A stretch of DNA of 64,000 nucleotides from an uncultured Dictyoglomota bacterium (lineage in GTDB: Bacteria; Dictyoglomota; Dictyoglomia; Dictyoglomales; Dictyoglomaceae): contig CAZZIO010000065.1 in assembly GCA_964654465.1 (NCBI GenBank), positions 32,001 to 96,000 on the forward strand, given 5' to 3'. Positions 13,801 to 16,800 of the stretch are shown one piece after another. The position numbers were made by a program. The stretch's first letter is position 1. Each line of letters starts with the position of its first letter.

Positions 13801-16800
13801 TCTTATTTTCATATACTTTGGAATAAAGATTATCTACAATTCTAAAAGATATGATCATAAAAGGAGGATAAAAATGAGAGAAGAAAGATATAAAATTTTG
13901 AAATTAGTTCAAGAAGGCAGAATTACAGCAGAAGAAGCAGAAGAACTCTTAAAAAAATTAGAAGAGAATCAAAATAGAGGCAAAAGGTTACTTCTATTAA
14001 AGGTAATAGAAAATGGAAATAATATAGTAAACATAAGTATCCCACTATCCTTAGCAAAATGGGGCCTAAAATTTGCTAATTCATATGCAGAAAAATACGG
14101 AGAAAAAATAGATTTCTCTCCAGAAGAATGGGAAGAACTAATAAGCAATCCAGATTTAAAAGGGAAAATTGTGGATATAAATGTACCAGAAAAAAACACA
14201 CAAGTAACTGTGGAAATAGTTTAGATATTAAACATCTATCAATTCATATTTGCCCCAAACTCCTAAATGCTCTCCTATAATAATTATTACTTGATGAACT
14301 TCTGGAAATTTTTTAGCAAATTCTAATCCTATATTTATATCTTCAGGCTTTTGAATAAGATTTCCCACTGCTGTAGCCATAGCATCTGCAAAAATAACAG
14401 AATGTGATATTATAACAACAGCATCAGCTTTGCCAAAACTAAGAGAAGGTCCCACTGTTCCAGAAGATGTACAAATACCCAATACCGAATTTTTAGGAAT
14501 AAGTATCCCTATTTTATTACTCCAGGGAGATTCTCCTGCAAAGATTAACACTTTTCTTTCTTTTTTTGTAGAAATGAAAATATCTCCACCATTTTCAATG
14601 ATTATTTGAGAAGAATAATTTAAAAGATCTTTTCCAACAAACTCGGATATAGCTCCTGCTACAGAAGCCATTGGCCCAACTCCTGCCTTTCCTGTCCAGT
14701 ATGACATCTGTTTAACTATTAAAGGTGCATCCTCTTCCACAGTGTAAGGAGTTAAGGATACCCTAAATAAAGGATCTCTTGATATATAATCTTCTAATTG
14801 TTGTCTATAGAAAGATAAAATTTTTAATGTTTCTTCTTCAAGGTTTTTCTCAGCTAAAACAAATAGGTCACTTTCCCGAATTTTTACAGGAAAACCAACA
14901 AGATCCTCTGTTTTCACTAACCTTCTATATTTTCTTTCTATATATTCTTTTGTCATAAAAATCCATAAAATATGGGGAGAGAAATATATCCTCTCCCCAT
15001 TTAAATATATCTAAACAAAGAGTTTCATCTCCATAGCATTATATGGACATAGTTCTACACAAATTCCACAAGCTGTACATTTTTGAGAATCAAACTTGAC
15101 AAAATAACCTTCTCTATAAAGAGCTTTTGTTGGACAATAACTTACACAATATCCACAATGTACACATTTATCCTCTAACCATACTACATCTTGAGAAAGA
15201 GGCTGAATCTCAACACCTAAATCTTTCAAATATTCAATTCCTTTTATAAAATTATCATCTTCTCCCGAAAGCTCTAAAACCATTAATCCCTCTTCGTCTG
15301 GAGTGATCGTAGCCTTAAGTATATTAAAATCCAAATTAAATTTTTTCACCAAATTTACCACTACAGGCTTATCAGCAAGTTCCTTTGGAAAATGTAATAC
15401 TATCCTCTCTGTTCTCACTTCTGCTCCACCTCCCCTAAAATCTCTTTTCCACTAAATTGTTTAAATTTTATACCTGACTCTACTCCAGGAAGTGGGGCAG
15501 AAGGAGAAGTTAAAAAGAATTTTCCTTCTTTTATCCATGATTTAAGTATTTCAGCTATCTCTTTAGCTTTAGGATAACTTGATAACGGGCTTGTAGGTAT
15601 CTTCTTTCCAAAAAGCTCTATATAACCACTTTTAAGTTCCTTATAACTTACATAAGTGATAACATCAGATTCTCTATTAGGATAAGCTGTAGCATAATCT
15701 ACTACTGGCGCCAGTATATCCTCATCACTAACAGAGGTATAAAAAGCCATCTCTTCATCTAAAATAGGAATTGGTACACCTATGCCTACTGCCAGTGAGA
15801 CCCCATATCCTTTCATGCTTACCCCACGAAGCCATTTTGCGTTCATCTGTTTAAGATCACCAATAACTGCTAATGTACCTGCTCCACCTTTTGGTATACC
15901 CCTTTCTGTCCTCTCTACAGAAGGATTATGTTGAGTTCCATGCCAAATCACATATCCTATACCACCACCCAAAAATATACGAGTTCCGATTCCTATAGTC
16001 TTATAATAAGGATCATTTAAAAGAGGTGATAATTGCCCTGCACTGGAATAATTTGCATTACCAAACTTAGGTTTTAACATACCTAAGTATGTATACAACA
16101 CTCTGTTTGAAGAGTTTACAGCCACATTATAATTTTGATACGCATTTCTTATATTAAAAAGTACAGCTTCATTAAGGTCATTTATTGTAATATAAGCATC
16201 CAAAAATCTTCTTGGGTAACAATCTGTACCATATGCTTGAGCAGTTATTCTAATTTCTTTACCTGAAACTAAATCCTCTATTACGTGTCCTCCACCATAT
16301 GGGAAATCTCCGGGATAATACTTATTTCTTGGATCATCATCAGGCAAGGCATTTGCACCTAAGAATAAGTCTACTGCTGCGTAAGCAGCATAAGCAGGAA
16401 CACCGTTAAGATATACTTTTCCTCCCCCGAGCTTAATTCTTGGTTTTGTATGGCCAATGTTAAAATATATACCAGAAGAACACATAATTCCAAAAGTCCC
16501 AGTTGTTACAACATCTACTTCTTTAGCTGCTCTCTCTACACCCTTTTCTTTCACGATACCAATCATTTCCTCAGCAGTAACAACCACTGCCTTACCCTGG
16601 CGGATCTTCTCATTAATTTCTTCAATTGTCTTCATCCTTTTACCTCCTTTTTCTCAATATCTATTATAACTTCTCCTATATTAACCGCCCTTTTCGGGCA
16701 AGGCATGATCCATAACAATTTCACCACCTCCTTAAATAAGGGGTAAAATTTTCCATATATAATACCAAAAACGTCGGAGTTTTGCAAGATTATAAATTGA

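Follow-up and report, generated by a model that had tools for sequence, protein, structure and literature searches.

Upstream of the homocysteine biosynthesis gene hcyBio (DUF39) lies a short leader, present in several phyla, that is a real cis-element and apparently an undescribed one. We read it as a ribosome-dependent translational attenuator that would sense charged Met-tRNA at a single internal AUG codon, and we put the probability of this reading at roughly 60%. The literature search, which left subscription papers and supplementary motif tables outside its reach, returned no leader attenuator based on a Met codon, no regulatory motif for DUF39 genes and no report of the present motif. 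For lineages in which the SAM-I riboswitch was not detected, the leader offers a first candidate for the control of the DUF39 homocysteine route: SAM-I gave no match in the genome of the window (the 64,000-nucleotide stretch of Dictyoglomota DNA analyzed here) or in 4/5 other leader-bearing genomes, and was present in the fifth. If the reading is correct, a 30-nt module made of one sense codon and a positioned hairpin would suffice as an amino acid sensor, and it is small enough for direct study in purified translation.

At the window locus a short open reading frame (ORF) with its own promoter, Shine-Dalgarno sequence (SD), start and open frame appears to stand first in the predicted transcript. 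The features of the locus are as follows.

16759..16787, minus strand: predicted sigma70-type promoter, with the -35 box at 16787-16782 and an extended -10 box at 16764-16759
16722..16731, minus strand: extended SD of the leader (sequence alignment)
16632..16718, minus strand: leader ORF of 28 codons with a TTG start at 16718; its cross-phylum conservation is confined to codons 1-5 (M-x-W-x-M)
16711..16713, minus strand: invariant out-of-frame AUG that takes its A from the end of codon 2 and its other two bases from the Trp codon
16704..16706, minus strand: internal Met codon (codon 5), the proposed sensor (motif scan and alignment)
16687..16699, minus strand: local GC hairpin beginning 4 nt past the Met codon, the proposed ON-state fold (folding and hairpin statistics)
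16685..16710, minus strand: silencer strand (16710-16696 plus 16689-16685), paired in the proposed OFF-state fold with an early part of the hcyBio coding region
16642..16649, minus strand: hcyBio SD, a weak alternative partner of the silencer here and its main partner in 13 Chloroflexota
16582..16603, minus strand: partner strand within hcyBio, spanning codons 11-18 (nt +33 to +54), in which rare codons are retained
15415..16635, minus strand: hcyBio (DUF39), homocysteine biosynthesis gene (PF01837, E 7e-155)
15011..15418, minus strand: NIL-ferredoxin gene (PF09383 and Fer4)
14228..14956, minus strand: PRK04334-family gene (NF003323, over its cut-off)

The PRK04334-family gene is presumably the COG2122-type third partner of hcyBio. 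For the set of HcyBio, NIL-ferredoxin and third-partner genes, homocysteine production has been shown in Desulfovibrio, according to the available part of the source (PMC5764234). The promoter boxes are kept across 11 Dictyoglomota genomes in an alignment in which the flanking sequence varies. The predicted 5' end of the transcript (16722-16750, minus strand) folds onto the leader SD in the window genome, forming a hairpin that is absent from most relatives. The adjacent upstream region, 16803-20083 (minus strand), lies behind a LacI-family gene and encodes a corrinoid protein, an AcsV/RamA-like activase and an MtaA/CmuA-like methyltransferase; the methyltransferase is the upstream neighbor in 2/3 genera and could supply methyl groups to homocysteine.

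The first-pass annotation had proposed an unannotated minus-strand ORF in front of hcyBio, and the 28-codon ORF at 16718-16632, with its TTG start, bears this out; its stop codon overlaps the hcyBio ATG in the window genome, which is not a general feature. The leader is single copy in Dictyoglomota, as had been claimed: a 27-nt core has one match in each of 11/11 genomes at ≤3 mismatches, with none in the reversed control, and the leader stands directly before hcyBio in all 11 although the upstream genes differ. The search for paralogous copies in the window genome likewise returned none. The start codon varies among TTG, GTG and ATG, again as described, whereas the spacing from GGAGG to the start, given previously as 5-6 nt, measures 8 nt in 10/11 genomes and 9 nt in 1/11. 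Codon 2 is TTA, GTA or ATA in these genomes, and the CTA that had been listed with them occurs only outside the phylum. The sequence after the core is free, as noted before, but the lengths reported for it (15-47 aa) are to be replaced by ORF lengths of 16-47 codons. None of the 11 Dictyoglomota leaders is in frame with hcyBio.

In total, 63 leader instances were found, in Dictyoglomota, Dehalococcoidia, Desulfobacterota and one further phylum-level group, and all are upstream of hcyBio. The working set used below holds 62 of them, 13 from Dictyoglomota, in which kin are not independent; L307 was found later, and the exact and near duplicates removed from the set by hand were L001, L003, L005, L010, L017, L020, L025, L031, L117, L147, L178, L181, L193-L199, L205, L216, L273 and L291. 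A relaxed pattern matched in 29/301 Dehalococcoidia and 66/301 Desulfobacterota genomes. Among 80 loci taken from these matches, at least 15 are SD-led and intergenic, and all 15 precede hcyBio; the remaining pattern matches that were inspected, which do not include L149-L156, lie inside long ORFs or lack an SD. Searches with the HcyBio protein only gave 5 further instances and then a leader at 25/67 loci. A blind pattern search of a 79-genome phylum-level group gave 3 matches (4 in the control), one of them the new leader L307 before hcyBio. A peptide-level pattern applied to metagenomes gave 20 matches, 10 of which are Dictyoglomota-type copies before hcyBio and 10 unrelated, and it missed distant instances because it required Pro-Cys-Pro. 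The element had been thought to occur almost only in Dictyoglomota, a restriction that falls with its presence at 10/79 non-Dictyoglomota hcyBio loci picked by protein similarity alone.

Two observations concern individual hcyBio loci. In L037, whose HcyBio protein is sister to the Dictyoglomota HcyBio proteins, the start of the leader peptide is perfect, the hairpin is weak, and hcyBio is without a canonical start codon at the aligned place. Many Dehalococcoidia (for example, G692, G693, G689, G740, and G749) have two hcyBio paralogues, of which often one carries the leader and the other has a short promoter-proximal 5' end with a conserved motif of its own.

The consensus across phyla consists of an SD, a start, 1-3 codons, NYA, TGG or TGT, one codon (NNN), ATG, about 4 free nucleotides and a GC hairpin. 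In a scan of 136 unique upstream regions that required only an ATG and a hairpin, 41/47 matches have TGG two codons before the ATG and an A precedes the TGG in 41/41. Because these columns were fixed by selection in the 62-instance set, that set offers no further proof of them. The hairpin follows the Met codon in 61/62 instances, compared with 43/316 control ATGs; it begins 3-5 nt past the AUG, and its loops vary.

Several features of the frame suggest that the leader M-x-W-x-M is probably translated. A canonical in-frame start within 2-6 codons, with no intervening stop, is present in 57/62 instances, against 3/62 and 4/62 for the other two frames, controls that depend on the SD, since of these frames one has GTG/ATG and another TGA within the SD itself. 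The canonical start lies 4-12 nt past the SD in 42/62 and is absent from that interval in 20/62; 5/62 have none within 6 codons. Extra leader codons come as whole triplets, and the internal AUG is preserved. The Trp position is UGG in 54 instances, UGU in 8 and UGA in none, and one instance reads W-M-M. Each leader has one cognate Met sensor codon, except for L249, which has two. The proposal of a leader sensing Met and Cys thus survives in part: the in-frame start, the whole-triplet extras and the retained AUG argue for a translated, Met-sensing leader, and the Cys component is dropped.

Past the Met codon, any of 12 residues is encoded by codon 6, codon 7 encodes Cys in 34/62 instances (13 of these Dictyoglomota) and something else in 28/62, and the length of the hairpin loop shifts the frame past Pro, so that M-x-WIMPCPKRA does not hold as a conserved peptide; WIMPCPKRA is the Dictyoglomus-specific reading of a structured RNA. 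The third base of codon 4 is C or A in 60/62. The metagenome pattern did not constrain wobble positions, yet the codons are identical in all 10 copies that precede hcyBio, which indicates that selection acts largely on nucleotides. The invariant leader codons are rare ones in the window genome (ATC 8.5%, TGC 17%, CCG 2.9%, GCG 3.8%). Of the synonymous changes that had been adduced for a peptide, AAA/AAG and GCG/GCA are found, and GCT is absent from the 11 genomes and the 10 metagenome copies; those that exist do not speak for a peptide, since one sits in the hairpin loop and the other converts a U-G pair to U-A. The earlier caveat that an RNA hairpin might be under selection has become central, because the local hairpin and a competing long-range helix account for the invariant wobble positions.

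The stretch made up of the Met codon and the 8 nt that follow it is complementary to RNA downstream. In 13 Chloroflexota, chosen by eye for pairing and occupying about three places on a weak tree rather than forming one clade, this silencer strand pairs over 10-12 bp with the hcyBio SD, spacer and start, at -14 to -23.5 kcal/mol; L260 and L262 are examples with 12 bp. Across this helix 92.3% of cells are paired and 3 pairs are changed on both sides, whereas slid controls give 21-53%. The cognate pairing was matched by 1/20000 permutations, compared with 926-11188 for five coding control windows. Over all 62 instances the permutation test is unspecific, the +30..+56 window also giving 0/20000 and the +120..+146 window 365.

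In Dictyoglomota the partner is instead hcyBio codons 11-18, at -26 to -32 kcal/mol in 12/13 instances and -15 in L006, which is changed on both sides. RNAalifold recovers this helix, with compensatory change in 0/19 consensus pairs. The 28-nt duplex of the window (-29.6 kcal/mol) is equaled by 1/126 leaderless genes, 1/47 other leaders and 0/5000 synonymous recodings, while the 12-nt Dictyoglomota core alone pairs equally strongly with 12% of 127 leaderless genes. In third-position conservation, hcyBio codons 11-16 rank first among 124 windows (0.94, compared to a median of 0.69), and neighboring 5' windows are also high.

The pairing is not uniform across the set. In 17/62 instances, including 7 from one Desulfobacterota lineage, the silencer pairs no better than with the median leaderless gene, and direct pairing with the downstream ribosome binding site was not found in 7 Desulfobacterota instances. 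In single cases (L139 and L103) the four free bases track the gene across lineages. In a second subgroup of Chloroflexota, a long helix ties the 5' untranslated region to the hcyBio SD. A third type of output platform is seen in L175-L182 and L203, where the leader's own SD has its complement in a segment 40-50 nt downstream; this segment can pair instead with a G run beside an anti-SD.

A ribosome that holds codon 4 in its P site has the AUG at +4 to +6, followed by the free bases (+7 to +10) and then, from +11 on, by the hairpin; the bacterial mRNA channel accommodates 11 nt counted from P-site +1, according to the portion of PMC7282821 available. Masking by such a ribosome was computed by forcing its footprint to be unpaired. 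In these calculations masking makes the hcyBio start easier to open, by >1 kcal/mol, in 12/13 of the covarying Chloroflexota; over all 62, it is predicted to lower the opening energy by >1 kcal/mol in 28 and to raise it in 7. Dictyoglomus grows near 70°C, and for the window transcript at 70°C masking is predicted to drop the probability of the long-range pair from 0.81 to 0.04 and to bring that of the local hairpin up from 0.17 to 0.90. This hairpin would dominate at 37°C even when unmasked (0.81).

These data are consistent with a switch in which ribosomes would initiate on the leader, as conservation of its frame and SD suggests, and in which the Met codon and about 8 nt after it would act as a silencer strand able to pair downstream. 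The partner would be the hcyBio SD and start in the 13 Chloroflexota, on the evidence of covariation, or codons 11-18 in Dictyoglomota, on that of complementarity and wobble conservation. When Met-tRNA is scarce, the ribosome would wait with the AUG in its A site, covering AUG-N4, and the remaining GCCC would be locked in the hairpin at +11. Since an A-site stall of this kind would mask the silencer strand, the downstream helix could not form and hcyBio would be ON, as the computed masking predicts. With ample Met, the ribosome would proceed and melt the hairpin, and the silencer would then pair downstream and turn hcyBio OFF. The Dictyoglomus helix encloses the hcyBio initiation site without covering it, and the modeled energy of opening the segment from the SD to +18 in the window genome is nearly the same with masking (1.6 to 1.8 kcal/mol); as this segment seems equally open in both states, we infer the repressing step in this genome by homology. 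Repression in Dictyoglomus would act via hindered loading or early elongation, via decay, or via Rho polarity, and RNase J-family and Rho genes are present in the window genome, which leaves decay and polarity possible as outputs.

Against the attenuator it can be said that one Met codon is a thin sensor. Met shortage also limits translation initiation. The attenuator accounts neither for the invariance of the out-of-frame AUG nor for the C/A ending of codon 4, and these two features keep alive both a riboswitch and a sensor acting at initiation.

A small metabolite-binding riboswitch, for S-adenosylmethionine, S-adenosylhomocysteine, Met or homocysteine, is an unlikely explanation but the one we would consider most seriously after the attenuator. 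AUG-N4-AUG would form its pocket, the ligand would favor the silencing helix, and the SD and start of the leader would be structural or secondary. Invariance at synonymous sites, the 5/62 instances without a canonical start and the folding of one Chloroflexota subgroup into multiple helices all fit such an RNA. However, the conserved junction is limited to 9 nt and one hairpin, and the triplet indels and the absence of stops and of UGA indicate decoding. Rfam gave sub-threshold scores only over the window region and 15 leader loci, with no SAM-family match in the window region and, as the first-pass annotation had also found, nothing near a gathering score at the window locus. The best score over the 15 loci is to SAM-VI (RF02885), at one locus and with 22.3 bits against a cut-off of 57.5. 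As far as the available part of PMC6914780 describes it, the SAM-VI pocket consists of U-G-U-G in J1-2 and C-G-A-N-A-A-G-U in J2-3, and SAM-VI resembles the present element in its Met-cycle gene and in a 5' strand that pairs across the SD/start region. The pocket nucleotides are missing here (UGUG in 2/62, CGANAAGU in 0/62), and, unlike SAM-VI, the element includes a leader ORF.

Rather improbable, in our estimation, is nascent-peptide arrest, along the lines of the first-pass proposal: M-x-W-x-M(-P-C) would make the ribosome stall, with a bound ligand or through the supply of Met/Cys. The Trp two codons ahead of Met in 54/62 instances, a hydrophobic codon 2 in 61/62 and the Cys at codon 7 in 34/62 would suit it. 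The residues past Met5 are unconserved, however, and the peptide at the stall site would be just 4-7 residues long; Cys replaces Trp in 8 instances, and codon 4 is represented by 11 codons for 7 residues. The usual signature of an arrest peptide, a residue motif with free synonymous codons, is not seen: the codons are fixed, and residues after Met5 vary across phyla.

We regard as very unlikely a sensor at the level of initiation, in which a 30S subunit held by the very strong SD would initiate on the out-of-frame AUG, which in most instances is separated from GGAGG by 13 nt. The footprint of this 30S would mask the silencer up to the hairpin, and the supply of initiator tRNA would set the state. 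The out-of-frame AUG is invariant, shows distances from the SD that cluster at 13, 10 and 16 nt, and exists even where the in-frame start is missing. On the other side, a well-spaced in-frame start is present in 42/62 instances, the ORF opened by the out-of-frame AUG has no conserved product or end point, and an SD-to-start distance of 13-18 nt is long for initiation.

A site for a feedback RNA-binding protein, such as the NIL-ferredoxin or HcyBio itself, recognizing the two AUG triplets beside the hairpin, would agree with the strict linkage to hcyBio, the conservation of single-stranded sequence and the freely varying hairpin loops, but we think it highly improbable, as it leaves the SD, start and open frame unaccounted for and a domain search found no RNA-binding domain in the three operon proteins.

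The remaining candidates were rejected: an N-terminal extension of or frameshift into hcyBio (in frame in 0/11 Dictyoglomota, the relative frame varying over 39 instances), a general output through translational coupling or through run-over at the hcyBio start (the frame reaches the start region in 32/62, compared to 24 and 27 for the other frames), a functional small protein (free tail and no Pfam or NCBIfam match), a mini T-box (no antiterminator in the alignments), and a transcription attenuator with an intrinsic terminator (0 terminator-like sites in 16500-17000).

Beyond the single-codon attenuator itself, we tentatively suggest, as a possibility that we would not bet on, a family of single-AUG methionine attenuators in at least 3 phyla. 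In such a family a hairpin at the mouth of the mRNA channel and the -1-frame AUG would sensitize one codon, or would couple the sensing of initiator and elongator tRNA, and the sensor module would have been swapped onto different output helices, one of them inside the regulated coding sequence.

The trp, his and leu transcription attenuators combine a leader ORF, cognate codons and alternative pairings. The present leader shares the ORF with a cognate codon and the alternative pairings but has no intrinsic terminator and no codon tract. In the mycobacterial polycysteine leaderless short ORFs, ribosomes stalled at Cys codons block a duplex that hides a downstream SD, as the available text of bioRxiv 10.1101/834739 has it. 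To that extent these are similar, with a short ORF before an amino acid operon and a stall at cognate codons that blocks an RNA duplex (here a proposal); they differ in having a Cys tract of ≥2 and being leaderless, compared with a single Met codon, an SD-led ORF, a hairpin in a fixed place 4 nt past the codon and a partner that may lie within the coding sequence. The ermCL and cat translational attenuators, as the same partly available source presents them, also have a stalled ribosome that rearranges hairpins and frees a downstream SD; their stall depends on antibiotic and nascent peptide, whereas the present leader has no conserved peptide beyond W-x-M. Stem-loops of dnaX and the HIV FSS placed at the mRNA entry hinder A-site binding, according to the part of PMC7282821 at hand, and the present hairpin is likewise 11 nt from P-site +1 with the Met codon in the A site. 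Here, unlike in those cases as described there, the stem is limited to 4-6 bp, a slippery site is absent, and an effect on pausing is hypothetical.

Other control elements were noted at hcyBio loci and in the window genome. About 150-60 nt before hcyBio, L063 and L067 have a different Met leader, whose ORF opens with three Met codons and is followed by a long U run behind a strong hairpin, the 5' arm of which is complementary to the leader codons; by its sequence this looks like a classical transcription attenuator for hcyBio in other Dehalococcoidia. In L082, L093, L095 and L104 the last 70 nt before hcyBio share an inverted repeat, rich in GC and enclosing a large loop, that lies immediately before the SD and is unrelated to the leader, and part of this repeat also precedes the leader in L081. 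The window genome has four T-boxes, on contigs C35, C52, C32 and C65 (L235-L238, the last at 55111-55384 of the window), none of them before Met genes; we take their downstream genes to encode acetolactate synthase, ThrRS, a TrpB-like protein and a TrpE-like protein.
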